From a virus: 64,000 nucleotides of DNA. Location of the stretch: positions 9,576 to 73,575 of the IMG/VR virus record IMGVR_UViG_3300025018_000143. The stretch is one strand, 5' to 3'. Positions 2,658 to 60,109 of this stretch are shown here, in pieces. The notes under the pieces are model-generated. The model was not told the DNA's origin. It saw only the letters and a list, made by a program, of their open reading frames with translations, and ran no database searches. How positions within the stretch are numbered: the first letter of the stretch is position 1; each line of letters begins with the position of its first letter. Both the position numbers and the translations under genes were made by a program.

Positions 2658-2923
2658 TGCCACTCTATAGCTATTTTTGCTACGAACACAAAGGCGGATG
2701 TGGACATAAATTCGAGGAGCAGCTTTCAGTAGATGAAAGGATGAAGCCCATGAATGAACCTTGTCCTAAATGTAAGAAAGAAAATACCATCTGTAGAGAA
2801 TATAAATCTAATCTTGCTCCTTCAATGATTGTTAATCCAAAAAGCAAGATGGATGATTCATTCATAGAAACCATGACGCGGATTAAAAAAGAAAACCCGG
2901 ATATGCAAAGTACATGGTTTTGA
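2657..2923 (+). CDS. FmdB-like zinc-ribbon protein
   Basis: MPLYSYFC...CGHKFE...CPKC. Confidence 0.75.
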   Translation: MPLYSYFCYEHKGGCGHKFEEQLSVDERMKPMNEPCPKCKKENTICREYKSNLAPSMIVNPKSKMDDSFIETMTRIKKENPDMQSTWF

Positions 2924-3065
2924 TTCTCATATGATACATTAGGTTCATAACGTACATTATACTATACAAAAAGCATCATAATGTAAATTATGATGTACAT
3001 TATGATACTATATCTAAAATGATCTATTATAAAGCATATTTTAGTGGATAAATGGAGATCAAAAA

Positions 3066-3365
3066 ATGGAAAAGCCTCAAATAACAGAATGCCTTAGGAA
3101 TCCTAATTTCAATGAGTACATTTGCAAAATGGATACTGATGTTGAACTTATAATCAGGAAGATCAATAAAGATAAAGATACATATGGACAAAAATCCTAT
3201 GTCAAATTGAAATTGCCTTCTGATTATGACTTATTTGCAGAGTATACAACCTCTGAATACAGTGTTAAGATGATTGCAGCTTCATTGAGGACTTTGGCTG
3301 ATAATATTGAAGCTGTTCAAAAAGAAGTAGAAAAGATTAATGATGTCCTTGGGTTCATGGATTAA
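3066..3365 (+). CDS. hypothetical protein
   Basis: ORF with GGAG RBS. Confidence 0.65.
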   Translation: MEKPQITECLRNPNFNEYICKMDTDVELIIRKINKDKDTYGQKSYVKLKLPSDYDLFAEYTTSEYSVKMIAASLRTLADNIEAVQKEVEKINDVLGFMD

Positions 3366-5802: not shown

Positions 5803-5876
5803 TGGGATATAGTTCAATGGTAGAGCGGATGACTTTGAATCATCAAGTTCCAGTTCGAACCTGGATATCCCTTCCA
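5803..5876 (+). tRNA. tRNA-Gln (anticodon UUG), CCA encoded
   Basis: Acceptor TGGGATA/TATCCCT; D arm GTTC/GAGC; anticodon arm GATGA-CTTTGAA-TCATC; T arm TCCAG-TTCGAAC-CTGGA; ends TCCA. Confidence 0.92.
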
Positions 5877-5892
5877 ACATACGAGGGCATCA

Positions 5893-6912
5893 ATGAATAA
5901 ATTACTAAAGCCATATGACATAGTTGAGATTTATAAAAATGCAACTAAGGATGTAATCAAATACGTCCATAATAATGGCTCTGAAACAACGATCAAAACA
6001 GTCAATACTTGTATTGGTCCTGCAGGTATTGTGGATAAAAGCAAAGCAGTAATGTTTATATCTGTGTCCTCTGGCTGCTCACAAAAATGTAAATTTTGCT
6101 ATCTGACGAGCAAGAAATTTCCTTTTTGTCAATTAGATACAAATACCATAATTAAATCATGCCTAGAAGTTCTAAAGAAATCAACAGAGCAATTAGAAGG
6201 GAAATATCTTAAAATTTCATTCATGGGTATGGGAGATGCTTTTGCTTCCAAGACAGATATGAATGAAATTGTCAAAAAGGTATTTCTGTTCGCATACTGT
6301 AAAGGAATGATTGCTGGCATTGATGGTGTTGATATCGGGACTTCATATCCTAATGTGGATAATTCAGGGATTTATAATTCAATTAATATGCTGAAAGAAA
6401 CTATCTTTCACCTCAATATACCTTTTAATCCTTTCTATAATTACAATAAAATTGCTATGGAGTATCCTGATTCAAGGACTCCTGTTAGATTGTTTATATC
6501 ATTGCATAGTATTAATGATACTGTTAGGTCATATTTGATGCCCAATTCTTCATCAATACAAAGAATATTGGATGATATTAAAAATATTGACATTGATGTT
6601 ATATTCCATTATATCATGTTTGATGGCATTAATGATTCACAAGATGATATAGAAAAAATTCTTGCCTTCTTTGATCGTGATACCATGAGGAAGTATGAAT
6701 TAAGGATCCTCAGATATAATATGGATATGAACACAGCAGGGCTTGCTGAATCTCCAGTTGTCAATGAAGCAATCAATACATTGAAACAATCAAAGTTAAA
6801 ATTCAAGTACCAGATTTCTGCAGGGTCTGAAATTTCAGCATCCTGTGGACAATTTCTTTGCAGAAGATTTACAGATAGAAAAGAAAACTCCTCTGTTAGC
6901 TCAATGGTTTAG
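5893..6912 (+). CDS. RlmN/Cfr-like radical SAM protein
   Basis: GCSQKCKFC (CxxxCxxC), FMGMGD, ISLHS, GINDS and ISASCGQ match RlmN motifs. Confidence 0.85.
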   Translation: MNKLLKPYDIVEIYKNATKDVIKYVHNNGSETTIKTVNTCIGPAGIVDKSKAVMFISVSSGCSQKCKFCYLTSKKFPFCQLDTNTIIKSCLEVLKKSTEQLEGKYLKISFMGMGDAFASKTDMNEIVKKVFLFAYCKGMIAGIDGVDIGTSYPNVDNSGIYNSINMLKETIFHLNIPFNPFYNYNKIAMEYPDSRTPVRLFISLHSINDTVRSYLMPNSSSIQRILDDIKNIDIDVIFHYIMFDGINDSQDDIEKILAFFDRDTMRKYELRILRYNMDMNTAGLAESPVVNEAINTLKQSKLKFKYQISAGSEISASCGQFLCRRFTDRKENSSVSSMV

Positions 6913-7596: not shown

Positions 7597-7604
7597 TATA
7601 AATA
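7597..7604 (+). promoter_or_regulatory. T4-type late promoter for the lysis cassette
   Basis: TATAAATA upstream of the holin. Confidence 0.7.
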
Positions 7605-7667
7605 ATATTGTAATTCTTTTACTTAATCTTTTTCTTAATCTGGTTAACGGATGCAATATAATATTCA

Positions 7668-8075
7668 ATGTTTAACAATAATGAACAACTACAATTTATA
7701 ATATCTGCTGTGATGATGTCTATAGTTGGAGGCATCGCCAACTGGCTCATGGCAGATAAGCACAGTGTATTCCAATTCATTGTTGCAGTATTTCTAGCTG
7801 GGTTCGCAGGATTCCTGGTAGGGCAACTATGCCTCGAGGCCAAAATCTCTGAGGCAGTTTCTTTCTTCCTTTGCGGCTCAGCTGGATTATGTGCTGAAAT
7901 GATCCTCAAAATTTCCAAGAAGGCAATGCTTTCTAAATTTAGCTTAATGACTGACCAGAAGCTGGATGAAGAATTGGACATGATTGAAAAAGAATATGCC
8001 AAAAGAAAATCCCTACATGTATCAACAGAAGATGAAAAAGAGTCAAATAATCTAAAAAATTTCCTTAACAAATAA
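7668..8075 (+). CDS. putative holin (LydA-like, 3 TM helices)
   Basis: Three TM helices, GG.A / AGFAG / CGSAG pattern, charged C-tail; lies upstream of a cell-wall hydrolase. Confidence 0.75.
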   Translation: MFNNNEQLQFIISAVMMSIVGGIANWLMADKHSVFQFIVAVFLAGFAGFLVGQLCLEAKISEAVSFFLCGSAGLCAEMILKISKKAMLSKFSLMTDQKLDEELDMIEKEYAKRKSLHVSTEDEKESNNLKNFLNK

Positions 8076-8080
8076 CTCCC

Positions 8081-8935
8081 ATGCAATATATTCATGATCT
8101 TATTTTCACCCGAACTATAAATATCCACCATGCGTATTCTATAGTTGCTCTTATAATTTCTTTATTTGGCCTTGGTATAGCATTCTTTATAAGAAGGGCG
8201 GCTGTGTTTAGATTAAAATTAGCCTGTGTTTACATTTTATTATTCGTAGCAGGGTTAGGTGGCTTCTTATTTGAGCATGAGAAATTTGGTATGGTTGAGC
8301 AGACTCTATACACATCATTCTTTATTCTTATGACTGTTTTATATTGGAGGGAAGTCTCTTCATATATGACCACAGAAGGATATCACCGCAAATCTCTTGG
8401 AATTTATATAGATGATGTTCCAGATTTGATATGGGTAAAGGATCTTGAGCACAGGTATACCTATGTAAATAAAGCTGTATCAAGTCTTTTGGGATTACCA
8501 ATTAATCTTATACTTGGCAAAACTGAAAATGATATCCGTGAAGTTTTTGAACGAACAGGAATGACTTATACTATTGGGTCAGAAGCCATTAAAGTAGATA
8601 ATAATCACACAGGCGATTTCATGATAGAGCCAAGAATTTTTCTTGATTCTGGTATTATCAATCGAAGGTTTATTGCACTTCAGGTATATAAAGGCCCTCT
8701 ATATAATAGCGATGATGTAATCACAAGAAAGCATGTGGGATATTTTGGTATCGGAAGAGACCTGACATACGACGTCGAAGACCATAACAGAATAACTGAA
8801 CATATAGAAAAAAATGAAATGGACGAGGCAATGATAATGTTCCAGATTCATAAAAATAGATATCAAAAAGTAAATATTTCTTCTATTAGTTTAAGAAGAA
8901 AAGAAGAGGATCAGGATGATAAAAGTAACATGTAG
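8081..8935 (+). CDS. membrane protein with PAS domain
   Basis: Three N-terminal TM helices, then IDDVPDLIWVKDLEHRYTYVNKA...LGK...GIGRDLT (PAS_4/PAC signature); no output domain. Confidence 0.85.
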   Translation: MQYIHDLIFTRTINIHHAYSIVALIISLFGLGIAFFIRRAAVFRLKLACVYILLFVAGLGGFLFEHEKFGMVEQTLYTSFFILMTVLYWREVSSYMTTEGYHRKSLGIYIDDVPDLIWVKDLEHRYTYVNKAVSSLLGLPINLILGKTENDIREVFERTGMTYTIGSEAIKVDNNHTGDFMIEPRIFLDSGIINRRFIALQVYKGPLYNSDDVITRKHVGYFGIGRDLTYDVEDHNRITEHIEKNEMDEAMIMFQIHKNRYQKVNISSISLRRKEEDQDDKSNM

Positions 8936-9341
8936 CTCAGAAGATTTGGAATGGCTTGCGAGAAATATATATTTCGAAGCCAGGAGTGAAAATATTCTTG
9001 GCAGGATGGCGGTTGCTTTTGTTACAATGAATAGAGCAACCCATCCAAGAGCAAGATGGGGAAAATCAATAACAAGTGTTGTCACCCAGCGGCTTCAATT
9101 TTCATGGTACAACAACAGAGTAGTTCCTGAGATAAAGAATCAAAATCTGTATAAAGAAATCAAATCACTTGCAAAGCAATGTGTTGAGATATACAACAAT
9201 ATGTCTGATGCAGGATATGAATTGGATGGTATCGTCCAAGGAGCAGACCATTACTACGCTACTTGGATTGCACCTCCTAATTGGATTGCTTCAATGAAAT
9301 TCGTGTGCCAAATTGGGGTACATAAATTTTACAAGGCTTGA
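8916..9341 (+). CDS. SleB/Hydrolase_2-family cell-wall hydrolase (endolysin)
   Basis: LARNIYFEARSE, AVAFVTMNR, QFSW, GADHYYA, IGVHKFY. Confidence 0.9.
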   Translation: MIKVTCSSEDLEWLARNIYFEARSENILGRMAVAFVTMNRATHPRARWGKSITSVVTQRLQFSWYNNRVVPEIKNQNLYKEIKSLAKQCVEIYNNMSDAGYELDGIVQGADHYYATWIAPPNWIASMKFVCQIGVHKFYKA

Positions 9342-10066
9342 TTTATTTTTGCAATTGTCGAAGTGCCATCTTTTCATAGGAGCAATTTTGCCTTCTTTTC
9401 CGCAATAAACACATACAACATTGGATTTTGATAATGATGTTTCTCTCATTTTTTGTTTAGTTGATGAGGAATGAATTCTATTCTTTCCTGCAATAGAAAG
9501 ATTTTTTTTATGTTCTGGTGATATTATTCTTCCTTTATGGGCTGCACTGATTTTTCTTTTGGTTGCTTCGGTTCTAGTTTTACCTTTCAAAGCTTTGCTT
9601 ATTTGTTTCTTTTGCCATTCGGATATTATCATGCCTTTATTAGCTTTGCTTATTTTGTCTCTAGTTTCTTGAGAAATTATTCTACTTTTATTAGCGACAG
9701 CAATTAATTTTTTAATTTTTTCATAGCTTCTACTGTTAATTTTATAATCACGGTACTGATTTTTAGATTTTCTATGTATCATACACCAAAATGCATAATT
9801 AATTTTATGATTACTATGCATTTTGGACAATAACCAATGGCATATAAAATGTTCTCTGGCTTCCAATTCCACTATATTATATTTTGAATTATTCCCTCCC
9901 AAACAACTAGGTATTATGTGATGTCTTTCTTTATAAATATTTTGAAGTAAACATCGATTATTTGCCTTATTTATGATGGATTGATATATTTTAGAATAAT
10001 TCATAATAGTTCCTATAGGATATTAATAAATGATGTTTATTTTATTTATAAGACCATTACTACGCT
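9245..10066. mobile_element. endonuclease cassette bounded by 16-bp direct repeats
   Basis: AGACCATTACTACGCT at 9245-9260 and 10051-10066; minus-strand late promoter TATAAATA at 10043-10050 abuts the right repeat. Confidence 0.8.
9291..10004 (-). CDS. HNH homing endonuclease with NUMOD3-like repeats (free-standing)
   Basis: ERHHIIP.CLGG.N...N...L.AREHF.CH.LL; SQETRDKIS-type repeats; C-terminal CxxC and MKRWHFDNCK. Confidence 0.9.
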   Translation of the reverse strand: MNYSKIYQSIINKANNRCLLQNIYKERHHIIPSCLGGNNSKYNIVELEAREHFICHWLLSKMHSNHKINYAFWCMIHRKSKNQYRDYKINSRSYEKIKKLIAVANKSRIISQETRDKISKANKGMIISEWQKKQISKALKGKTRTEATKRKISAAHKGRIISPEHKKNLSIAGKNRIHSSSTKQKMRETSLSKSNVVCVYCGKEGKIAPMKRWHFDNCKNKSSLVKFMYPNLAHEFH

Positions 10067-19516: not shown

Positions 19517-20970
19517 TGGCGTATAGAAAAAATGACATTACTATAGCACCATTTGGGTATGATATAAAATCATTACTTCTTATTTCAGAAGATGCTGAAA
19601 TAGATTTGACTTATCTAATGATAGAGCTTAATATCAATGAAAGCATGTTTTCAACTTGTATTGTTGGCAGCATAGTAATTGTTGATTCTCTTAACTTAGT
19701 AACAAATCTACCTATAATGGAAGGTGATCTTATTAAAGGTCATTTTGTCCGTAATGAAAATGATCCTTATGTTCAAGAATATGACCCTGAAGATTTAAAA
19801 TTCACATTTGAAATCATAAAAATCCTAAGACAAGAAAAAACAAAACAGGATCAACAAACAGTTGCGTTATCATTTGTCTCAAGTACATGGACTGACCATT
19901 TATCTTCCCGTGTATCAAAAAGTTATAATCAAATGCCATATTCATCTATGGTTAAGGATATATACGATAATTGGTTATCAAAGGGTGGATTAAGAGGTGA
20001 ATTGCCAGTTAAACCAATTGAAGTAGGCGTTTCAGACAGATTATGGAATATTGTTATACCTAATCTAAAGCCATATAATGCGATAAATTTTCTTTCAAGA
20101 AGAGCTTTTTCAGGTGATTCTGTGAATTTCTTATTTTGGGAAGATAAGGACAAATTTAATTTCAAATCATTCTCTGAAATAATGGCTGCTGATCCAGTAG
20201 CTGAATATGTTACTGCTATAGGCGAAGAGGTAGCAGATACAATGGGCGAGCCAAAACCAGAATTCTTGAAATCACAGTATCTAAATGTTATGTCCATGAA
20301 GAGAGTAGGATATCATGATTTATCCGCAGCTGCTATGTCTGGCATGATGTCAAACAGATTAATACGCCATGACATATTTCATAAAAGAGTAATTGATTAT
20401 CATCCTACTGGAGATAGTGCAGGGAATTATTCTCTTGATAAACAATATGATTATTATTCTGATTTTGGTAAATTACCTCACACAGACAATCAATCAAAAT
20501 TAGTAAGAGAATACACAAATAAGAAGATGGCTACTGATGGGGGAAATACAATTATCAGTATATGCCCTGAACATTCATGGCAATATGATAATCAAGAATC
20601 ATTTGAAGTAAATAATTGGGTTAGACAACGTAAAGGTCAATTAGCTCAATTAAATTTTGTGAAAATGCAGATGACAATTCCAGGAAGCATGACAAGAAAA
20701 ATAGGCGACAAGATAAAAATAAAAATGTGGTCACCAGAATGGAAACTAAAAACTCCTTCTGATGAATCACCATCGAAAGATTCAAGATTCGCAGGGCATT
20801 ATATTATAACTGCAATTAGAAGAAAATTCTCTGGTGATCATTTTTCTTGTATATTGGAAGTAATTAGAGATGATTATGCTAAATTAGAATCGAATCCATT
20901 ATGGGAAGAGGCTGGTGCTCCCGGGAGCGGAAGCAGAGAAAGTGTACCTGGTGGAAGAGGAGGCGTGTAA
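19516..20970 (+). CDS. baseplate hub protein (gp27-like)
   Basis: I.ES.F....G.I...DS.N....LPI, FLFWE, G.Y.ITAI; lies between gp53 and gp5. Confidence 0.7.
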   Translation: MAYRKNDITIAPFGYDIKSLLLISEDAEIDLTYLMIELNINESMFSTCIVGSIVIVDSLNLVTNLPIMEGDLIKGHFVRNENDPYVQEYDPEDLKFTFEIIKILRQEKTKQDQQTVALSFVSSTWTDHLSSRVSKSYNQMPYSSMVKDIYDNWLSKGGLRGELPVKPIEVGVSDRLWNIVIPNLKPYNAINFLSRRAFSGDSVNFLFWEDKDKFNFKSFSEIMAADPVAEYVTAIGEEVADTMGEPKPEFLKSQYLNVMSMKRVGYHDLSAAAMSGMMSNRLIRHDIFHKRVIDYHPTGDSAGNYSLDKQYDYYSDFGKLPHTDNQSKLVREYTNKKMATDGGNTIISICPEHSWQYDNQESFEVNNWVRQRKGQLAQLNFVKMQMTIPGSMTRKIGDKIKIKMWSPEWKLKTPSDESPSKDSRFAGHYIITAIRRKFSGDHFSCILEVIRDDYAKLESNPLWEEAGAPGSGSRESVPGGRGGV

Positions 20971-22334
20971 TGGATTCATCAAATTCAGTAAAAAATGTAA
21001 TGGGCATGGATGGCTTTTATTGGTTCATGGGTGTTGTAGAATCCACTGCTGATCCTGAGAAGCTAGGCAGAGTTCAGGTACGAGTGCTCGGCGATCATAC
21101 ACAAACAAAATCGGATATCCCTACTGCTGATTTACCATGGGCAATGCCCATGATGCCAGTTACTACTGCATCAATGAATGGTATTGGAGAAGCGCCAATT
21201 GGTCTTCTTAATGGATCGTGGGTGATGGGATTTTATCGTGATGGTATAGATAAACAGCAACCAATTATAATGGGTTCAATAGGAGGAATTCCTATTGATG
21301 TGAGTACTCCAGGAGTTGGGTTCAATGATCCTGATGGGTGTTTTCCTCAGGATTCTAAATTAAATGAGCCTGACACAAATAGACATGCAAGAGGTATTTC
21401 AGGTAAACATGTTAAAGAGCCTGTGCCAGTAACAATAAGAAAGGCAAATGTGCTTAAAAATGTTGCTACTGCTTATAGTCAATGGTCTGAACCTGAAACG
21501 CCATATGCTCCTATATATCCATACAATTATTCATGGGAAGGTGTATATAATCCTTCATGCGATGGTTGCGAATGGGGACATATTGAAGAATGGGACAGCA
21601 CACCTGGTTCAGAAAGATATTTTAGACAGCACAAATCCTCTCAAAATTTTTTAGAAATACACCCAGACGGTAAAGAAATTAGAAAGATATATGGTGATGG
21701 GTTTGAAATTGATTTAGCTAATAAGCATCTATATGTTGAAGGTGATTACCGTGTAACTGTCAATGGAAACAAAGATGAACATATTAAAGGTAATTATTGG
21801 CAGCATGTGGAAGGAAATATGATTAGAGTTGTTGATGGCGACAAATCAACAATAACCAGAGGCAATGATGCTATGACCTCTTATTCTAATACCGTTCGTA
21901 GGTCATCAGGAAGCATCATAGACGCAACACAAAATAATCATGTACGATTGGCTAATAACACCATAAATGATTCAGCAGGGTCTAAAATAACAGCATTGGC
22001 GGGGTCAGAAACAACATACGGTGTAGGATCCTATTCTCCTGTATCAATAAGCACAGTAACAGCCAGCTCAGTATCTTCAGATGGATATAACAGTGTTGTA
22101 TTATCATGCTTCGAAGCCAATGGGGGAAAGGGGAGTGTATCTGGTACTATTATTTCTAGTGTCCCAGGGTTCGGCTCTTCAGCTAATAGCACAGCCAACA
22201 CACAAATCAAAATAGTACCCTCAAGAATATACATCGATGGTATTGCTATCTGTAAAAAATTAGTTACTACGAGCTTTAAAGCTCCTCGAGGAAATATTAC
22301 TTCATCAGTGTCAATATCTACTGAAACACCATAA
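20970..22334 (+). CDS. gp5: baseplate central spike gp5 (OB fold and beta-helix, no lysozyme domain)
   Basis: WFMGVVE...DP..LGRVQVRV.G.H, LPWA, YPYN, GH..E.D.TPG.ER, V.GN repeats; ATG at 20970. Confidence 0.9.
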   Translation: MDSSNSVKNVMGMDGFYWFMGVVESTADPEKLGRVQVRVLGDHTQTKSDIPTADLPWAMPMMPVTTASMNGIGEAPIGLLNGSWVMGFYRDGIDKQQPIIMGSIGGIPIDVSTPGVGFNDPDGCFPQDSKLNEPDTNRHARGISGKHVKEPVPVTIRKANVLKNVATAYSQWSEPETPYAPIYPYNYSWEGVYNPSCDGCEWGHIEEWDSTPGSERYFRQHKSSQNFLEIHPDGKEIRKIYGDGFEIDLANKHLYVEGDYRVTVNGNKDEHIKGNYWQHVEGNMIRVVDGDKSTITRGNDAMTSYSNTVRRSSGSIIDATQNNHVRLANNTINDSAGSKITALAGSETTYGVGSYSPVSISTVTASSVSSDGYNSVVLSCFEANGGKGSVSGTIISSVPGFGSSANSTANTQIKIVPSRIYIDGIAICKKLVTTSFKAPRGNITSSVSISTETP

Positions 22335-31932: not shown

Positions 31933-34900
31933 ATGATATCTTTCAACCGCAGCCCATACTATGATGATTTCGAAGGATCAAAGAAATTTCATAGAATCCT
32001 ATATAGGCCTTCCTATGCTGTACAAGCAAGAGAGCTTACCCAACAGCAAACAATTTTACAAGCACAAATTTCACGATTCGGGGAGCATATATTCAAAAAC
32101 GGGTCCATGGTAATTCCTGGACATATTATGTTTGATACAGAAGTCTTCTATGTGAAAATTAATGCTGCTTATAATGGATTTGAAGTTGATGAAACAGCTT
32201 TTATTGGTTCTATTATAGAAGGGGTTACCTCTGGCGCAAAAGCTGAAGTAATGCTTTCTTCTGGTGTTGAAGGAACTGATCCTAAGACTTTGTATATCAA
32301 GTATACTGACTCTGGGCCTCTTAATGCTCTTTCATTCCTGGATGGTGAAGTTCTTCAAATAGTAGCTAATACAAATGTCAAATGTGAAGTCCGAGGGACT
32401 TTTGATGGCACTTCAACATTGAATATTGGTGATAGCTGTATAGCATCTATTCAAGAAGGTATTTACTTCATTAATGGATATTTCGTTATAGTTGACACCC
32501 AATCGATTGTTGCTAGTAAGTACACAAACAACCCCTCATTGAAGATTGGACTCCAGCTATACGAGTACATTGTTACAGCCGAAGATGATGCGTCATTGAG
32601 AGATAATGCACAAGGATCGTATAATTACGCTGCTCCCGGTGCTGATAGATATAAACTTGATCTTAAACTTGAAACTGCAGGCATTGATGATATACTGAAT
32701 GATGATTTTATTGAAATACAAAGAATAGATGCTGGGTACATTGTTAATGAAGTACGTGACCCAGAATACAATGAACTGGAAAAAACATTAGCAAGACGGA
32801 CATATGATGAGTCAGGTGATTATACCGTTAGAAAATATAATCTTAATATCAAAGAGCATCTCCTAGATCCTCTTATCCCTAGATTGAAAAATGGTAGATA
32901 TCTTGCGATAGAAGGCGGCGATGAATCAAAAATTGCTATTGGTGTTGAACCAGGGAAATCATATGTACGTGGGTTTGAGCGATCAAATATTGCTACTACA
33001 TGGGTTCCTTCTAATAAAGCGAGAACTACCTCAGCAAATAACAATAGTGTAACAAATTGCAATATTGGTCAATTTATTTATATTCAACAGCTTCATAAAT
33101 TCCCAGATATTGCTAAATATGCAACCATTAAATTATATGATGTTGCTGGGAGCGATGGTGTATTATCAAGTGTAAATAATTTAATAGGTACTGCAAGGGT
33201 TCGTGGGATTCAACTAGTTGAATCCGATGCTACTCCTTCGCTTTCTGTATATAAATTATTCTTATTCGATATTGCTATTAATACAGGAAGAGCTTGGTCT
33301 GAAGTTCTTTGGATTGAATCACAAGATACTGATCTTATTTTCACAGCAAGCACTGACATTGATATATCCAGCGCATATTATGATTATGCATTCTCGATTC
33401 AACAACCAGCAAATAAAACCTCAGTATTTCATTTACCTCATCAATACATAAAAACATTGAAAATTGATGGTGTGTCTGATACCACATATACTGTACAGAG
33501 AACATATACTAATAAAAGTTCCAATGCTGGTGTTATTGCTATTTCAGCAGGATCCAATCAATTATTTGATACATACAATGGATCAAATTATGTTGTAATG
33601 AATATTAACGGAACTACTGCTAATAATTCATTTGTTCCTATATCAAGTGTCACATTAGTTGCTGGTGGAGCTTCTGTTGAAATTAATCTTGGAGCGTATC
33701 CTGATAGTGATTTCAGGGTGATATTGCCTGTAATTAAAACTGTTGCTGTAGAAAAAACAAAAACAAAACAAACAGCTGTTTTTGATATTGTAGGCGCAGA
33801 TATAAATTTAATACCAAGTGGATATAATGTTCTGAATAAAGCTGATGGTTATAGATTAGTTTCTGTAATGCTGAATTCAGTTACTGATATTACCAATCGG
33901 TATGAATTTGATTCTGGACAGAGAGAAGCTTTTTATGATCTAGCAAGAATTCGTTTACGTAATGATGCAGCTCCTGTAAAAAGTACAGATACATTAACCG
34001 TAACATATGAGTATTTTTCACATGGTGCTGGTGATTATAGTTCTGTAGATTCTTATTCAACTTTGGATTATAGTGAAATTCCTTTCTTCTTTTCAGAATC
34101 TGGAGTTTTTGCATTATCGGATTGTGTTGATTTTAGACCTGTTGCTAATTCTTCTGGTGGGTGGGATACAAGTAATGAATTACCGATACCGCTATCAAAT
34201 TTTAGATCGGATTATGAATATTATCTTGGAAGAATAGATAAACTAGTTATTGATTATACTGGCATATTTAATGTTATTGAAGGTCAACCTTCATCTTCTC
34301 CAAAGCCGCCGAAATCTCCTGATAATGCTATGCTATTATTTGAGATTACAATGAATCCATATGGTGTTTCTGTTGCTGATATAAAACCGAAGTTTATTGA
34401 AAATAAACGATATACAATGAGGGATATTGGTAGCCTTGAGAAAAGAATAGGAAATCTTGAATATTATACAGCTCTTTCTCTTCTTGAGAGAGAAACTGCT
34501 GAATTTCAAATAAAAGATGAAAATGGTTTGGATAGATTTAAGAATGGTTTTATTGTAGAACCATTCAATAGTCATGCTCTAGGTGATTCAACAAGTATTG
34601 ATTATAAATGTTCAATTGATCAAACTGAAGAAAAAATGAGACCTACTTTTTCTTCTGACTCTATAGATTTGGAATTTGATCCTGATCTTTCAGTTAATGT
34701 TGTTCGTAATGGGAATCTTGTTACATTGCCATTTACTAGCGTTGCGCTTATTTCACAAACGTTAAATTCTACCTCAGAGAACATAAACCCATTTGCAGTA
34801 AGATCATTTCGGGGTGTAATGGATTTCAATCCTGATTCTGATAACTGGTATGATACATCTAAAAATGGTACTATCATTGTTAATGATGATGAAAATATGG

Positions 34901-37836
34901 CTGCTTTACAACAAATAGCAGACCAAGCAAACCTTAATGGTATAACATGGAATGATTGGGAAACCACATGGACTGGTGTAGAATACTCACATCGATATGG
35001 ATGGAATAGATATCTTGGCTTAGATGGTGCCGGCGGACCTAGTTGGTACGGCAATGTCAGATACCCTTATAATAATAACCTTAATGGCTGGTATAATGGC
35101 GATTATTACGGCGGTGTCGACGGCTGGTACAGCGACAATTATTATGATCGTGGGTTTAATAATTATAATGATATAACATGGAATAATTATTGGTATCAGA
35201 CACACGGATGGTCCAGGAACTGGCTTGCTACCACTGTTTCAAGCCAAGAAAGAACTGGTCTCCAGACTACAAGCACTGTAAATATTTCAGAGCGTGATAT
35301 CGGTGATCGTGTTGTTAGTATGAACTATATCCCTTATATGAGAAGTATAGCAATACTAATCAAAGTAGAAAATATGAAACCTAATACGATCATATACCCT
35401 TTCTTTGATGATATCGATGTTGCTCCATATTGTATTCAAGCTTCTAGGGTGGCTATATCATCTAAAGTAGGTGATTTTCTCACAAACAATAAATCTGAGG
35501 AATATGTAACATCATCTGGTGGTGGGAATGCTAAAATTGTATTCCAGAGTCCTTCTGAATTGGCTTTTGTGGAATGGGATGGTATAGGATTTGCTTCAGG
35601 ACAAACTGTTATTGGAAGCACTTCTGGAAGCACTGCAGTGTTGGCTGCTAATCTTGTGTTGAATTCTGCAAGCGGTCCATTTACTACTGATGCATTAGGT
35701 AGAGTTGCTATGATGTTTCGTATACCTAGTAATGATACTTTAAAATTCAGAACAGGCGACAGAACATTTTTACTTACTGATCAAATAAATAATACCCAAT
35801 ACAACCAAACAGTAAGCCAAGGTATTTTCAAGAGTGAAGGTGTAATGAATATTACTGAAGGTACTATTCTTTCTACTGCTACTCTTCAAACAACAACAAA
35901 TACTGTTGAAGAAGAAAGAATTGTTAGAAACACTAATCTATTTGGTTGGGGTTGGAATAAACATGATAAAAGGGCAAGAAGATATAGTGCATCTGGCTGG
36001 CCATACAGTTATTGTTATGATGATCCTCTTGCTCAAACATTTCTCATTGAAGATGAAGGTGGTTGTTTTGTTACAAAATGTGATATTTACTTTAAGGATA
36101 AAGATTCTGAAAATAGACCTGTTATTTTCCAGATTCGTGAAGTTGAGAATGGATATCCTTCTCAGGCAGTAGCACCATATTCTGAAGTCATAAAATATCC
36201 ACATGAAATAACCACATCAACTGATGGTTCTGTTGCTACAACCTTTGTTCTTAATTCACCTGTATATTTACAACAAGGCACTGAATATTGCTTTGTGTTG
36301 CTTACAGATTCATTTGATTATAATGTATGGATAGGTGAAGTAGGACAAACTGATATTATATCCAATAATTTGATTTCCAAGCAGCCTGCTACTGGTGTTT
36401 TATTCAAATCACAGAATGCAAGTACATGGACTGCTAATCAATTACAGGATATGAAATTCATTTTATATAAGGCTAGATTTGCTATTGAAACTGCTGAGGG
36501 TTCAGGCGTACCTAATTATGGTGAAACAGTATTACATAACAAATCACTTTCTCCTGCATATATTGGATCAAATCCATTAGAGACATTTGAAGGCTCTAAT
36601 CTTGTAAGAGTTAGACATTATTCTCATGGATTCTCAAATGGAAGCACAGTAACATTATCAGGATTTGATGATTCTGAAGGATTGTTTAATAACATCCCTG
36701 CAAGTGAAATTAATGGTTCTCATATTGTATACAGAGTTGAAATTGACTCCTATGTGATTCAAGTTTCAACTCTTGCGAATGATTCTGGTTTGGTGGGTGG
36801 TAATACTGGTTTGGCAACAAGAAATGTACAATTGGATGTTTTTAGACCTAATATAACAGAAGTGATTGTTACTGGTGCTGGATCTTCTTGGTTTGTAAGA
36901 AGTACATCAGGTCAATCTGTTAATGGAAATCAAACACCTTATGTAAAGGAATCATCTTATTCATTAATAAATGTTACTGAAAATAATTTTTTTAATACAG
37001 CAAAAGTTATTGCTAGTGATGATAATGAAAATATTTCAATGGCAGGTGAGAAGTCATTGGATGTGAAAAATGTAATTTTTAGTAATAACAGAAATATTTC
37101 ACCTGTGCTTGATCTAGGCAGAGCTTCTTGTATTGCAGTAGGTAATAGAATTGATTATCCTTCTTATGATACTGCTAATAAAACTATAACAGTTACAGCA
37201 GGTAGTTATGAAGTTGTTGTGTCTCATGTTGATCATGGAATTTCAACAGGGACATTTGTTGAAATATCAGCATCCACAACAATTGGTTCATTAACAGCAA
37301 GTGAGCTTTCTGGATTCTTTGGTATTACAAGAATTGATGATGATTCATATAAATTTAAAGTGATTTCTAATACTACTCCAACAAATGGATCTGGTCTTGT
37401 CAGTGTAACATGGAGTACCTCACATTATAAGAATATTCCAGAAAATGTTCCTGCAGGAAGCTCTGGTATAGCTAGGTATATAACAAGAAGAATAACATTG
37501 GAAGAGCCTGCTGTTGCAGTAAAGATTATTATATCTGCTGTTGCAATGGATGAAGCTGAATTTGAGATTTGGTATAAAAAACAAAGTCCTTCAGATAATA
37601 ATTTATTTGAAAATCTACCTTGGACTAAATTAACTACTGATTCTTTTGTTGCATTGTCAAGTAATATTACTGATTATAGGGATTATGAGTACACAAAAGA
37701 ATTCTTTATTGATGAACCAACAAATAGTATCCCAGATGAGTATACATCTATTGCTTTTAAATTAGTAATGAAATCAACTAATTCAAATAGAGTTCCTATA
37801 TTTGATAACCTCAGAGTAATTTGTTTAGGCACTTAA
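31933..37836 (+). CDS. large virion structural protein (DUF4815/VrlC-like)
   Basis: PYYDDF, LYRP..AVQARELTQ.Q, APGADR, LARRTYDESG.Y, RYTMRDIG, RFKNGF, DPLAQTF, LFKSQNASTW. Confidence 0.85.
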   Translation: MISFNRSPYYDDFEGSKKFHRILYRPSYAVQARELTQQQTILQAQISRFGEHIFKNGSMVIPGHIMFDTEVFYVKINAAYNGFEVDETAFIGSIIEGVTSGAKAEVMLSSGVEGTDPKTLYIKYTDSGPLNALSFLDGEVLQIVANTNVKCEVRGTFDGTSTLNIGDSCIASIQEGIYFINGYFVIVDTQSIVASKYTNNPSLKIGLQLYEYIVTAEDDASLRDNAQGSYNYAAPGADRYKLDLKLETAGIDDILNDDFIEIQRIDAGYIVNEVRDPEYNELEKTLARRTYDESGDYTVRKYNLNIKEHLLDPLIPRLKNGRYLAIEGGDESKIAIGVEPGKSYVRGFERSNIATTWVPSNKARTTSANNNSVTNCNIGQFIYIQQLHKFPDIAKYATIKLYDVAGSDGVLSSVNNLIGTARVRGIQLVESDATPSLSVYKLFLFDIAINTGRAWSEVLWIESQDTDLIFTASTDIDISSAYYDYAFSIQQPANKTSVFHLPHQYIKTLKIDGVSDTTYTVQRTYTNKSSNAGVIAISAGSNQLFDTYNGSNYVVMNINGTTANNSFVPISSVTLVAGGASVEINLGAYPDSDFRVILPVIKTVAVEKTKTKQTAVFDIVGADINLIPSGYNVLNKADGYRLVSVMLNSVTDITNRYEFDSGQREAFYDLARIRLRNDAAPVKSTDTLTVTYEYFSHGAGDYSSVDSYSTLDYSEIPFFFSESGVFALSDCVDFRPVANSSGGWDTSNELPIPLSNFRSDYEYYLGRIDKLVIDYTGIFNVIEGQPSSSPKPPKSPDNAMLLFEITMNPYGVSVADIKPKFIENKRYTMRDIGSLEKRIGNLEYYTALSLLERETAEFQIKDENGLDRFKNGFIVEPFNSHALGDSTSIDYKCSIDQTEEKMRPTFSSDSIDLEFDPDLSVNVVRNGNLVTLPFTSVALISQTLNSTSENINPFAVRSFRGVMDFNPDSDNWYDTSKNGTIIVNDDENMAALQQIADQANLNGITWNDWETTWTGVEYSHRYGWNRYLGLDGAGGPSWYGNVRYPYNNNLNGWYNGDYYGGVDGWYSDNYYDRGFNNYNDITWNNYWYQTHGWSRNWLATTVSSQERTGLQTTSTVNISERDIGDRVVSMNYIPYMRSIAILIKVENMKPNTIIYPFFDDIDVAPYCIQASRVAISSKVGDFLTNNKSEEYVTSSGGGNAKIVFQSPSELAFVEWDGIGFASGQTVIGSTSGSTAVLAANLVLNSASGPFTTDALGRVAMMFRIPSNDTLKFRTGDRTFLLTDQINNTQYNQTVSQGIFKSEGVMNITEGTILSTATLQTTTNTVEEERIVRNTNLFGWGWNKHDKRARRYSASGWPYSYCYDDPLAQTFLIEDEGGCFVTKCDIYFKDKDSENRPVIFQIREVENGYPSQAVAPYSEVIKYPHEITTSTDGSVATTFVLNSPVYLQQGTEYCFVLLTDSFDYNVWIGEVGQTDIISNNLISKQPATGVLFKSQNASTWTANQLQDMKFILYKARFAIETAEGSGVPNYGETVLHNKSLSPAYIGSNPLETFEGSNLVRVRHYSHGFSNGSTVTLSGFDDSEGLFNNIPASEINGSHIVYRVEIDSYVIQVSTLANDSGLVGGNTGLATRNVQLDVFRPNITEVIVTGAGSSWFVRSTSGQSVNGNQTPYVKESSYSLINVTENNFFNTAKVIASDDNENISMAGEKSLDVKNVIFSNNRNISPVLDLGRASCIAVGNRIDYPSYDTANKTITVTAGSYEVVVSHVDHGISTGTFVEISASTTIGSLTASELSGFFGITRIDDDSYKFKVISNTTPTNGSGLVSVTWSTSHYKNIPENVPAGSSGIARYITRRITLEEPAVAVKIIISAVAMDEAEFEIWYKKQSPSDNNLFENLPWTKLTTDSFVALSSNITDYRDYEYTKEFFIDEPTNSIPDEYTSIAFKLVMKSTNSNRVPIFDNLRVICLGT

Positions 37837-50500: not shown

Positions 50501-50640
50501 TTGCAAATCTTGAGGATTGATGTTATAATGATTTAATAGTATAAGAAGAGGATAGGGTCTGCAGCCTGAAAGCAAGAAAACCTATCTTGTTTCCTCTTCT
50601 GTTTTTAATTAATAGGTGATTCTTAAAGGTAAAGATAATG
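50501..50640 (+). promoter_or_regulatory. sigma70-type promoter plus structured 5' leader of an endonuclease gene
   Basis: TTGCAA-N17-TATAAT (50501-50529); AGAAGAGGA/TCCTCTTCT stem 50544-50600. Confidence 0.65.
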
Positions 50641-52272
50641 ACTAGAGAAGAAGCTAGAATTTGGATATTGAATAATTGTTTCACAAAAAAAGGAGATAAA
50701 TTGTCTCCTTGTTATTGTAGGGTGGAATATTTAGCAGCAAAAAATAAAGATGTATATGAAATTTTATTAAAAAAAACGAATCCAATATATTGTGATTCAA
50801 TATCCAAAATGATACAATTATTTTTGGATGACAAATACCAATGTGAATGTATTTCCTGTGGTAAAATACTTAAAAAATTAAATCTTTTTTGTGATGCAAA
50901 ATGTCAAAATAAATCTGGTTTATATGAAAATTTTAAGAATTCTCACAGCCCAGAAGCTAATAGGAAACGAAAGAAAACTAATATAGAAAAATTTGGTAAT
51001 GAATATGCTGTAGCTTCAGAAACAGTAAAGAAAAAAATTAAAACTGTTTGTAGAGAAAAATACAATGCTGATAGTTATTTTGGGTCTGATGAAGGTCAAC
51101 AAAAAATAAATGAAACACAAATTAAATTATATGGCGCTGTTGGATTAAAATCAAAATTCATACTAAACAAGACACAAGAAAAACAGAAAGTTTTATATGG
51201 TGGAGTTGGCTTAAAATCAAACTCTATATTATTAAAGGCTCATAAAGAAAAAAATAAATTAAATCCTTTTGGTGTGATTGATAAAAATTCTTTACGTGAA
51301 TCTGTAAAGGAAAATGGTGTTTATCGATTATCATTGATTAACAATTGTGATGATAGCACAATTTATAAAGCTATTCATCGTTGTGGATTAAATAAAGAAT
51401 TATTAAGGAAGCAATCATCCATCTTCGAGGATGAAGTTTATAATTTTGTCCTTAAAAATTCAGCTTATAAAGTAATTAAAAATGATAGGAATGTGATTAA
51501 ACCTTATGAGATGGATATCTTAATTCCTGAATATAATATTGGATTTGAATGTAATGGTCTTTTTTGGCATTCAGAAAAATATAAAGATAATAATTATCAT
51601 TATATCAAATCCGAACAATCTAGGGCTAATGGAATTAAATTAATTCATATATGGGAAGATGATTGGAATTATTCTAAAGATATTATCAAACATAAAATTT
51701 TACATCATTTGAATAAAAATGATAAAGTATACGCTAGAAAAACTATTCCAGGGTTTGTTGGCAAAATAGAAGCTAAGGATTTTTTAATTAAATACCATAT
51801 ACAAGGCAATGGTAATTCATCAATAGCAACTGGTTTGTATTATGATGATGTATTAATTTCATTGATGACCTTTAAGAGGCATAAAAATAATGAATACACA
51901 TTGGATAGGTTTTGTTCTAGTTGTGATGTAATTGGTGGGTTCTCTAAACTCCTCAAATACACTATTAATGAATACAAGATTGGTGTAATACATACCTTCC
52001 ATGATATATCATACAATGGAATGGGCAATAATGTTTATAATAAATCTGGGTTTGAATTTGATTATCTCATTAAACCAGATTATAAATACTTGTATAATAA
52101 TAAAAGAATACACAAATTTAATTTTAGACATAAAAATTTAAAGAGAATTCTTAATAATTATAATGAAAATGAATCCGAACATACTAATTGTTATAATCAC
52201 AAAATATATAAGGTGTATGATGCTGGTAAACAAAAATATAAAATGATTATAAAGGAAAATCTAAATGCCTAA
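50638..52272 (+). CDS. Hef-like free-standing homing endonuclease
   Basis: KYG/LYG repeats; DILIP..NIGFECNG.FWHS, LIHIWEDDW, YARK, RFC...VIGGFSKL, YDAGK. Confidence 0.8.
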   Translation: MTREEARIWILNNCFTKKGDKLSPCYCRVEYLAAKNKDVYEILLKKTNPIYCDSISKMIQLFLDDKYQCECISCGKILKKLNLFCDAKCQNKSGLYENFKNSHSPEANRKRKKTNIEKFGNEYAVASETVKKKIKTVCREKYNADSYFGSDEGQQKINETQIKLYGAVGLKSKFILNKTQEKQKVLYGGVGLKSNSILLKAHKEKNKLNPFGVIDKNSLRESVKENGVYRLSLINNCDDSTIYKAIHRCGLNKELLRKQSSIFEDEVYNFVLKNSAYKVIKNDRNVIKPYEMDILIPEYNIGFECNGLFWHSEKYKDNNYHYIKSEQSRANGIKLIHIWEDDWNYSKDIIKHKILHHLNKNDKVYARKTIPGFVGKIEAKDFLIKYHIQGNGNSSIATGLYYDDVLISLMTFKRHKNNEYTLDRFCSSCDVIGGFSKLLKYTINEYKIGVIHTFHDISYNGMGNNVYNKSGFEFDYLIKPDYKYLYNNKRIHKFNFRHKNLKRILNNYNENESEHTNCYNHKIYKVYDAGKQKYKMIIKENLNA

Positions 52273-58813: not shown

Positions 58814-60109
58814 ATGAAAGATTTGATGAAAAAATGTAAATGTGGGTGTGGTGAATTTGTTCGTCCTGATAGAACATATATTAATGGACACAATAGCAGA
58901 GGAATTTCTGTATCTCATAATGAAAAGACCAAAAAAATTATTTCTATTAAAGCCAAGGAAAGGTTTAAAAATGGACAAATAGTGAATTGTAAAATATATG
59001 ATATCCCTTCCAAAGAGGATTTGGAATATATGTATAATGAAAAATTTTTATCCATGAATCAATTATCAAAGATGATGGACACATCAATACCTACATTGAA
59101 GAAATGGATGTTAAGTTATGAGATGAAAATAAGAAATCTAAAGAAAGCTAACCAGAATGCCTTGAAGACAGGTTCCAGAATATCATCTTATAATGATCCT
59201 GTTGTACAAAGAAAATGTTTTGATAATAGAAAAGTAATACGTCAATCAAAACAGGAATTAGAAGTGTATGAATACATAAAAACTTTTTACGATAAAGAAA
59301 TATATCAAAGCTATAAATTAGAAGGCGCAGAAATAGATATATTCATCCCTGATAAAAATATAGGTATTGAATATAATGGATTAGCTTTCCATTCCGAAAT
59401 GTTGCATTATGTTTTTAAAACTAAATCCTTAAAACAAGTAAAAACATTACATCAATATAAAACTAATATAGCAAGAAAAAATAATATCCATCTTATTCAT
59501 ATATGGGAAGATGATTGGAATAATAAGCAGGATATTATAAAGAGAAAAATATCATATCTTCTTAATGGCCCTGAGAAAAGAATTTACGCTAGAAAATGCA
59601 GTATTACAAAATTGTCGGGAGGAGAAGCTGAAATCCTTTATAGCAAATATCATATACAAGGAGGAGTTAATGCCACTGTCCATTATGGCTTGATGTATGG
59701 TAATGAATTGGTATCCTGTATGTCATTTACTCATAAAAAAGATGATTGGGAATTGGTTAGGTTTGCTTGTTCCTGCTCAGTTGTAGGTGGGTTTTCCAAA
59801 TTAGTAAAGCATTTTATAAAATACAACCAAATCAAAGGTGAGCTGTATTCATTTGCTGATTTGACAATTGTTAATCCTCATAACAATGTTTACTTAAATA
59901 ATGGGTGGCTGGAAGCAGGGTATTTGCAGCCTGACTATAAATATATTGTCGATGGTGAGAGAAAGCATAAATTTGGTTTCAGACATTCTTGTTTAAAGAA
60001 TAAATTAGAAAATTATGATCCATCTTTAACTGAGCATGAAAATTGTCTTAATAATAAAATTTACTGTATATGGGATGCAGGAAAAATAAAATACACTTAC
60101 TGTAAATAA
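58814..60109 (+). CDS. second Hef-like homing endonuclease
   Basis: CKCGCG..GHN N-terminus; EIDIFIP..IGIEYNG..FHS, LIHIWEDDW, YARKC, VVGGFSKL, WDAGK. Confidence 0.8.
   Translation: MKDLMKKCKCGCGEFVRPDRTYINGHNSRGISVSHNEKTKKIISIKAKERFKNGQIVNCKIYDIPSKEDLEYMYNEKFLSMNQLSKMMDTSIPTLKKWMLSYEMKIRNLKKANQNALKTGSRISSYNDPVVQRKCFDNRKVIRQSKQELEVYEYIKTFYDKEIYQSYKLEGAEIDIFIPDKNIGIEYNGLAFHSEMLHYVFKTKSLKQVKTLHQYKTNIARKNNIHLIHIWEDDWNNKQDIIKRKISYLLNGPEKRIYARKCSITKLSGGEAEILYSKYHIQGGVNATVHYGLMYGNELVSCMSFTHKKDDWELVRFACSCSVVGGFSKLVKHFIKYNQIKGELYSFADLTIVNPHNNVYLNNGWLEAGYLQPDYKYIVDGERKHKFGFRHSCLKNKLENYDPSLTEHENCLNNKIYCIWDAGKIKYTYCK

Follow-up and report, generated by a model that had tools for sequence, protein, structure and literature searches.

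A 64,000-nucleotide (nt) stretch of the virus record IMGVR_UViG_3300025018_000143 (positions 9,576 to 73,575 of that record; the whole stretch is called the window here, and coordinates are those of the window unless another locus is named) carries a lysis cassette of three genes on the plus strand, in which a gene for a membrane-anchored PAS protein lies between a holin gene and an endolysin gene. The first open reading frame (ORF; 7668-8075) encodes a 135-amino-acid (aa) holin of the LydA family (PF16083, PHROG 6384), the second (8081-8935) encodes the 284-aa PAS protein, and the third (8916-9341) encodes a soluble, 141-aa SleB-type (Hydrolase_2) endolysin (PF07486, PHROG 938). Only 5 nt separate the holin gene from the PAS gene, the final 20 nt of the PAS gene are shared with the start of the endolysin gene, and the sequence GAGGA is located 6 nt ahead of the endolysin ATG. 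An original prediction made from the DNA letters alone had described these genes as tightly coupled and the last of them as an overlapping SleB-type hydrolase, and both descriptions were borne out.

Predicted architecture of the PAS protein

Hydropathy analysis of the PAS protein identified two strong hydrophobic segments, at residues 19-37 and 45-63, and a weaker third segment at about residues 73-89 that is clearly hydrophobic in relatives. AlphaFold2 placed helices at residues 15-36, 41-63, and 66-96, with predicted local distance difference test (pLDDT) values of 90-97, and these three helices form a putative membrane module comprising residues 1-96 (8081-8368, plus strand). The loop at residues 37-46 contains four Lys or Arg and zero acidic residues, and the loop at residues 64-75 contains one basic and three acidic residues. 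Because of this distribution of charge, the protein is predicted to adopt an N-out, C-in orientation with the PAS domain in the cytoplasm. The basic loop carries a conserved RRxxVFRxKL motif, and a LYWRE motif is found at the cytoplasmic end of the third helix. Comparison of the membrane module with the Pfam and PHROG holin families revealed no similarity.

In the AlphaFold2 model, the three helices are followed by a linker helix, a five-stranded PAS core, and a two-helix tail. The PAS domain (residues ~113-230; 8417-8770, plus strand), as delimited by DSSP, Foldseek, and Pfam, contains strands at residues 116-120, 126-129, 185-193, 196-208, and 218-227 with helices between them, and this modelled order of two strands, helices, and three strands is that of a canonical PAS domain. 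The Pfam family PAS_8 of the clan PAS_Fold passed its cut-off marginally (22.3 bits versus 21.8) and over residues 110-148 only, the families PAS_4 and PAS scored slightly under their cut-offs, and the Pfam PAS matches overall spanned residues 110-151. The best Foldseek match was the PAS domain of BvgS (probability 1.00, E value 3e-6). A total of 173 Protein Data Bank (PDB) matches were obtained at an E value of ≤0.001, with target TM-scores of 0.62-0.74 to solved PAS/LOV domains; the PAS domains of NifL and DosP, LOV domains, and VqmA were also matched by Foldseek. PDB PAS chains matched the profile of the PAS protein weakly. Since the family profile recovered 28,252 PAS-bearing proteins, the PAS assignment is considered safe, and the structural model indicates that the middle protein of the cassette carries a genuine PAS fold.

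Beyond the PAS domain, only about 50 residues remain, and these are modelled as a helical hairpin (residues 232-262; 8774-8866, plus strand) that follows an RDLTYD motif. The hairpin contains the conserved residues D234, H235, F254, H257, and Y261, and the last 22 residues of the protein are of low confidence. No Pfam family was found over the hairpin, and no other Pfam domain was found in the protein at an E value of ≤1, HisKA/HATPase, GGDEF, EAL, and DNA-binding domains included. The model, the Foldseek matches, and the Pfam search thus agree with the earlier description of a three-transmembrane PAS (3TM-PAS) protein without a kinase or cyclase output.

Conservation of the holin-PAS gene pair in other phages

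Gene context was compared in nine further lineages of three-helix family members for which DNA was available (L001, the L002 group, L006, L009, L020, L022, L023/24, L028, and L108); the L002 group consists of the near-identical contigs L002-5, L018, L019, and L021, and L009 includes the fragment L010. The gene directly upstream of the 3TM-PAS gene matched PF16083 in 9/9 of these lineages. Scores were 31.5-46.4 bits in eight of them and 23.3 bits, below the cut-off, in L028, where the upstream protein matched PHROG holin family 785 with an E value of 7e-5. With gene starts placed by family alignment, the spacing between the two genes ranged from a 14-nt overlap to a 23-nt gap. Synteny with lysis genes elsewhere, which the original prediction had named beforehand as a point on which it could fail, was thus found in every lineage compared.

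The same association was recovered from the side of the holin. A reverse search of IMG/VR with the holin alignment returned nine loci on nine contigs, eight of which carried a 3TM-PAS gene behind the holin gene. At the ninth locus, in the T4-like relative L105, a membrane-only homologue occupied this position, and none of the nine loci lacked both forms. The L105 protein (2917-3246 of that contig, 109 aa) aligned to residues 14-91 of the window protein with 38% identity (E value 9e-18) and ends just after the LYWRE motif, with a Cys-rich tail. Because this protein stops after LYWRE, it shows the membrane module to be a separable unit that is kept beside the holin. In L105, a Hydrolase_2 endolysin gene is found three genes downstream, with two unrelated small genes between. 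The membrane-only form was a singleton, with no relative of 59-191 aa in a set of 5.8 billion proteins.

The genomic neighbourhood of the pair differed among lineages. In L001 and the L002 group, the pair lies in a T4-like neighbourhood between a radical-SAM gene and gp59/gp32; in L006 and L020, it comes after tail-fibre-like genes; and in L009, a lysozyme gene lies four ORFs further on, with a large putative portal gene behind it. The survey for holin-PAS-endolysin triads that had been proposed with the original prediction returned the holin-PAS pair in all nine lineages and an endolysin within the available flank in 4/9, from three classes: Hydrolase_2 (L001 and L018), Phage_lysozyme (L009), and Amidase_2 (L020). 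Because the pair survives a change of both phage backbone and endolysin class, the PAS protein appears to be tied to the holin rather than to the endolysin. Collectively, a role of the PAS protein in lysis, tied to the holin, is well supported by gene context, and these comparisons suggest that the two proteins most likely constitute a two-gene module travelling between phages.

More distant PAS proteins with family motifs were found among holin-like, spanin-like, and M15 endolysin genes at the loci L012, L013, L014/15, L016, and L033. In L012, the PAS domain is fused to a longer membrane domain; in L013, L014/15, L016, and L033, a soluble PAS protein is flanked by small membrane proteins. An M15-type endolysin gene was found near the PAS gene in L012, L013, and L014/15, L016 has a DUF5675 protein, and no endolysin was seen on the short L033 contig. 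Since the per-domain scores of these distant forms overlap those of bacterial PAS domains, they were counted as supporting context and not as members of the family.

At L014, a 124-aa protein with an N-terminal membrane helix overlaps an 82-aa protein with a lipobox-like LVFSGC sequence (2664-3222 of that locus). This pair resembles an i-spanin and an o-spanin and lies directly before the genes for the soluble PAS protein, a small membrane protein, and the M15-type endolysin.

Distribution of the PAS-protein family

A word-indexed search returned 13 relatives of the PAS protein with 34-55% identity, all unnamed or annotated as PAS domain-containing proteins, and 8 of the 13 had a precomputed match to PF08448. 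A protein identical to that of the window is encoded on a 144-kb contig. Among the best 150 of the 28,252 proteins recovered by an exhaustive profile search, 47 were proteins of 158-338 aa, most of which matched near the full length of the profile. The remaining 103 were proteins of 434-3,231 aa that matched mainly the PAS part, and the two of these that were scanned were multi-PAS histidine kinases. The family comprises at least 47 clusters at 50% identity, which carry no PHROG family or other functional annotation. In an alignment of 51 sequences, D121 was invariant and P114, D115, W118, K120, N130, G146, P206, and G220 were nearly invariant. In a closer alignment set, R39, K46, and E91 were nearly invariant, and RDLT after the last strand was conserved together with D234, H235, H257, and Y261. 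A Cys-x-x-Ser-Asp motif is found in the helical part of most family members and is missing from the clade of the window protein, and in some members the N-terminal membrane domain is longer, with four to five helices.

No match to any of five family members used as tblastn queries (the window protein, P0016, the L014 and L033 PAS proteins, and P0076) was found in 50,697 records of deposited phage genomes. A search of 185,579 bacterial species genomes returned 72 loci with no family member among them; the best-scoring ORFs at these loci matched the PAS part of the profile only and were mostly long multi-PAS proteins. In a scan of metagenomes, the 80 loci retained of 115 included eight with family members (L018-L024 and L028), the rest encoding generic PAS proteins. 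Loci were sought with the subgroup alignments A3, A4, and A7, the last of which added none. A protein atlas yielded only generic PAS clusters and two viral clusters, of ~233 aa, whose model is similar. To date, the family has been seen in uncultured phages only.

The holin and endolysin flanking the PAS gene

The window holin scored 32.1 bits against PF16083 (LydA holin, holin superfamily III; cut-off 28.4) and matched the PHROG holin families 6384, 785, and 1527, the first with an E value of 2.6e-9. Hydropathy analysis identified three hydrophobic segments at about residues 10-28, 38-56, and 64-82, and the C-terminal tail is charged, with 11 Lys or Arg and 11 Asp or Glu residues. A score above the family cut-off, a length of 135 aa, three hydrophobic segments, and a charged C terminus are the features of a LydA-type holin; by family the protein is such a holin, and hole formation is predicted. 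The earlier description of this gene as holin-like with three transmembrane segments was therefore confirmed. Because no Lys or Arg is found near the holin start, the protein, by the lambda rule, lacks a lambda-like dual-start antiholin. The window and L001 holins are 67% identical and have the tail motif DxELDMIEKEY in common, and residues G21, G22, H32, F46, C55, S61, G70, and G73 were invariant in 10 aligned holin sequences. The window holin had no match in the 50,697 deposited phage genomes.

The endolysin scored 58.4 bits against PF07486 (Hydrolase_2; cut-off 27) over profile positions 2-100 of 100 and matched PHROG endolysin family 938 with an E value of 1.1e-18. Matches were found in 1,053 phage records, 998 of which covered at least 80% of the query, and identity to annotated endolysins of enterobacterial and Campylobacter phages was ~37%. 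The whole-domain match above the cut-off and the annotation of relatives as phage endolysins are those of a SleB-type endolysin. The window protein consists of the catalytic domain only, and its closest relatives have 70-115 extra N-terminal residues containing a hydrophobic, signal-like or anchor-like segment (L001, 2249-2884; L018, 4344-5048; L105, 4091-4675, each in the coordinates of its own contig). Because it has no hydrophobic N terminus, the window endolysin would depend on a hole-forming holin. Given these different N termini, the endolysin seems, among close relatives with the same holin-PAS pair, to be exported in some and dependent on the holin in others.

A homing-endonuclease gene with NUMOD3 motifs (9291-10004, minus strand; PHROG 655, E value 7e-53) lies behind the cassette, and its 3' end overlaps the final 51 nt of the endolysin gene on the opposite strand. 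Since L001 and L018 lack such a gene after the endolysin gene, the homing endonuclease looks recently inserted.

Comparison with known lysis systems

Lysis timing decides burst size and phage fitness. To our knowledge, the few lysis regulators that have been studied (λ S107, T4 RI and RIII, and P1 LydB) respond to protein ratios or superinfection and not to the inner state of the cell. PAS domains are the commonest bacterial sensors of small molecules, redox state, and light. Judged from titles and abstracts, no description of a PAS protein in a phage lysis cassette was found in a literature search covering open-access papers and bioRxiv.

We know of one studied phage with a LydA holin, P1. 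Its LydA belongs to the same Pfam family as the window holin, with a PF16083 score of 30.1 bits compared with 32.1 bits, and BLASTP gave no pairwise alignment between the two proteins. In P1, lydB lies directly behind lydA with a 4-nt overlap, and in the window the PAS gene lies directly behind the holin gene with a 5-nt gap. In P1, lydA and lydB are read from a late promoter, the antiholin LydB delays lysis, and lydB amber mutants lyse early (PMC9025707). In contrast to the window PAS protein, LydB is a soluble protein of 147 aa that has neither membrane helices nor a PAS fold, and how it acts is reported as unknown (PMC9025707).

The phage backbone in the window is of the T4 type, and in T4, lysis is delayed on a signal by a dedicated protein of the sensor type, which binds to the holin. 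The periplasmic antiholin RI and the cytoplasmic antiholin RIII act on the T4 holin T in lysis inhibition, and RI can act while membrane anchored, probably by blocking holin oligomerisation (PMC11413866; PMC8385771). However, RI, which lacks a PAS fold, is a periplasmic sensor, whereas the sensor domain of the window protein is predicted to be cytoplasmic, and there is no sequence relation between the two. RIII, like RI, is not a PAS protein.

A third comparison is provided by the VqmA protein that Vibrio phage VP882 encodes; no other phage PAS sensor of solved structure was among the matches. The PAS domain of this VqmA reads a small molecule in the cell and thereby influences the time of host lysis. 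Foldseek matched the window protein to VqmA of VP882 (7dwm) with an E value of 1.3e-4 and to host VqmA (6ide) with an E value of 1.1e-4, and a VqmA profile match extended over the whole PAS domain with an E value of 0.0026. This similarity is at the level of PAS domains in general. VqmA is a soluble, DNA-binding transcription factor, whereas the window protein is membrane anchored, has no DNA-binding domain, and is encoded in a lysis cassette.

A proposed holin-bound regulator of lysis timing

The reading that we favour, at a probability of roughly 0.5, is that the PAS protein may act as a holin-bound regulator of lysis timing, probably an inhibitory one, with a PAS-dependent input. As expected of an antiholin, the protein is encoded beside the holin, 5 nt behind it in the window and directly behind a LydA holin in all nine lineages. 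Inhibition of the holin appears more likely than its activation, since lydB occupies the equivalent position in P1. The original prediction had proposed a signal-responsive antiholin or lysis timer that links lysis to host redox or metabolic state; this is partly supported, in that the link to lysis and to the holin is strong, antiholin action is a proposal, and the redox or oxygen cue finds no counterpart in a conserved cofactor-type Cys or His residue.

In the proposed mechanism, the holin and the PAS protein would share an N-out, C-in arrangement of three helices in the inner membrane, and the membrane module of the PAS protein would associate with the holin and alter its oligomerisation into holes. 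One continuous helix is predicted to join the third transmembrane helix to the cytoplasmic PAS domain. An intracellular cue read by this domain in the infected cell might then change the association of the membrane module with the holin. Because the protein has no enzymatic or DNA-binding output, a signal would have nowhere to go except back to the membrane module or a partner bound to the protein, and the path could run via the membrane module or by direct contact with the cytoplasmic tail of the holin. A prediction of the holin-PAS protein complex from alignment inputs gave a score of 0.00; it was run without controls and counts neither for nor against binding.

A bolder form of this proposal is a portable two-gene lysis clock, in which the PAS domain would gate the holin in response to a metabolite, to redox or energy state, or to some other cue inside the infected cell, and we regard it as tentative. 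If it holds, the physiology of the host, and not holin accumulation alone, would set the time of the burst, and the PAS protein would be the first case of a cytoplasmic domain for ligand sensing in a lysis regulator. With a PAS-based holin partner, a phage would have a direct route for adjusting lysis to the state of its host. The two genes of the module span only ~1.3 kb, several types of endolysin appear to be compatible with it, and use as a ligand-controlled lysis switch is conceivable. Reconstitution of lysis genes in laboratory E. coli has precedents in P1 (lydA, lydB, and lyz; PMC9025707) and T4 (T and RI; PMC11413866). The proposal also provides a functional lead for a protein family found only in phages.

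Several observations weigh against a sensory, antiholin-like role. No sequence relation to known antiholins was found, and no Pfam antiholin family matched the PAS protein at an E value of ≤1. Homology to P1 LydB (PF16084) was rejected at an hhalign probability of 0.2%, and PF16084 was not among the Pfam matches of the PAS protein at an E value of ≤1, with P1 LydB itself scoring 348 bits. Because LydB is not homologous to the PAS family, the likeness is one of position and possibly of role. The family has no conserved Cys or His at the positions of the cofactor-type motifs of LOV and haem PAS domains. In the window protein, conservation and model confidence are lowest at residues 160-180 (pLDDT 41-65), where other PAS domains form their ligand pocket. 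With a poorly conserved pocket region and no cofactor-type residue, the PAS domain might only dimerise or serve as a scaffold. The gene context was drawn from nine lineages, with ~40 further family representatives from run-level assemblies left out, and an endolysin was recognised in only four of the nine: the L006, L022, and L028 contigs end directly behind the PAS gene, and none was seen in 1.1-1.7 kb of downstream sequence in L023/24 and L108. The source record is a fragment rated 42% complete, and further lysis genes of this phage may exist outside it.

Strict pairing and coupling with the holin would also fit if the PAS protein were the second subunit of a two-component holin, such as those of Bacillus phages, or an activator, with the PAS domain as a gate and with loss of the gene expected to delay or abolish lysis. 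Both proteins have three helices in an N-out, C-in orientation, and all nine loci of the holin clade carry the membrane module, which suits an obligatory partner better than an optional brake. However, the module is unlike any Pfam or PHROG holin family, its basic loop and LYWRE motif do not resemble features of holins, and cloned P1 LydA acts as a holin with Lyz alone (PMC9025707). We consider a co-holin or activator unlikely.

The poorly conserved and poorly modelled pocket and the absence of a conserved cofactor-type residue would suit a constitutive, non-sensing holin partner, in which the PAS domain provides dimerisation or a scaffold and timing follows protein levels, as with other antiholins. 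PAS domains commonly serve as dimerisation modules, the Cys-x-x-Ser-Asp motif has been lost in the clade of the window protein, and the L105 relative has dropped the PAS domain entirely. Yet the PAS core and the RDLTYD-DH helix that follows it are the best-conserved parts across the 51 sequences, which argues for a constrained function beyond anchoring, and the form without a PAS domain stands alone among 5.8 billion proteins. A partner of this kind is somewhat less likely again than a co-holin, and the holin-bound regulator with a PAS-dependent input is preferred to both.

Least probable is a membrane sensor that serves some purpose unrelated to lysis, for example superinfection exclusion or control of another late function, and merely shares the late transcript: function is deduced here from gene position only, and late operons of large phages do mix functions, as in the P1 dar operon with lydA, lydB, and antirestriction genes (PMC9025707), but the adjacency to the holin outlasts backbone transfer and a change of endolysin class when other neighbours do not, and PAS relatives that are split or anchored in other ways likewise occur in lysis cassettes.

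Candidate promoter and genomic surroundings

The original prediction had also placed a late promoter ahead of the cassette. The T4-type late-promoter word TATAAATA is present at 7597-7604 (plus strand), in the 105-nt gap before the holin gene, and the distance from the word to the holin ATG is 71 nt. The window contains 21 copies of TATAAATA compared with 13.0 ± 3.8 expected, and 5 of 100 shuffles reached 21 copies. The word was found upstream of the holin gene in 0/13 related loci, where 150 nt was inspected (99-108 nt on shorter contigs). The promoter thus stands as a plausible candidate, with weak enrichment of its sequence in the window and without conservation in relatives. Between 7400 and 10200, σ70-type promoters and terminators were found at chance level only. 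A second copy of TATAAATA lies at 8116-8123 (plus strand), 35 nt into the PAS gene, and is probably due to chance.

The source record, 73.5 kb in length, has a G+C content of ~34% in the window, which contains a T4-type gene set encoding the gp59 helicase loader, gp32, baseplate hub and wedge proteins, sheath, portal, and major head protein. Identity of the major head protein to its counterparts in T4-like phages of Pseudoalteromonas, Pelagibacter, and cyanobacteria does not exceed 52%, and on sequence grounds the phage is far removed from all deposited phages. No T4-type lysozyme family was found in the 73.5-kb fragment, and neither was a T-type holin (PF11031), a search that was also silent in control genomes.

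Upstream of the cassette, a tRNA-Gln gene (anticodon TTG; 5803-5876, plus strand) is directly followed by a radical-SAM gene (PF04055, PHROG 27142; 5893-6912, plus strand), and a radical-SAM gene precedes the lysis genes also in L001 and L105. A gp5-like baseplate hub protein (20901-22334, plus strand) matched PHROG families annotated as hub subunit and tail lysozyme; because there were zero matches to Phage_lysozyme (PF00959) across the 73.5-kb record, this hub protein seems to be without a lysozyme domain. Two large HNH-type homing endonucleases are encoded among the structural genes (50638-52272 and 58814-60109). Between the baseplate and fibre genes, a 1,967-aa protein (31933-37836, plus strand) matched PHROG 358, a family of unknown function, with a reported E value of 0.

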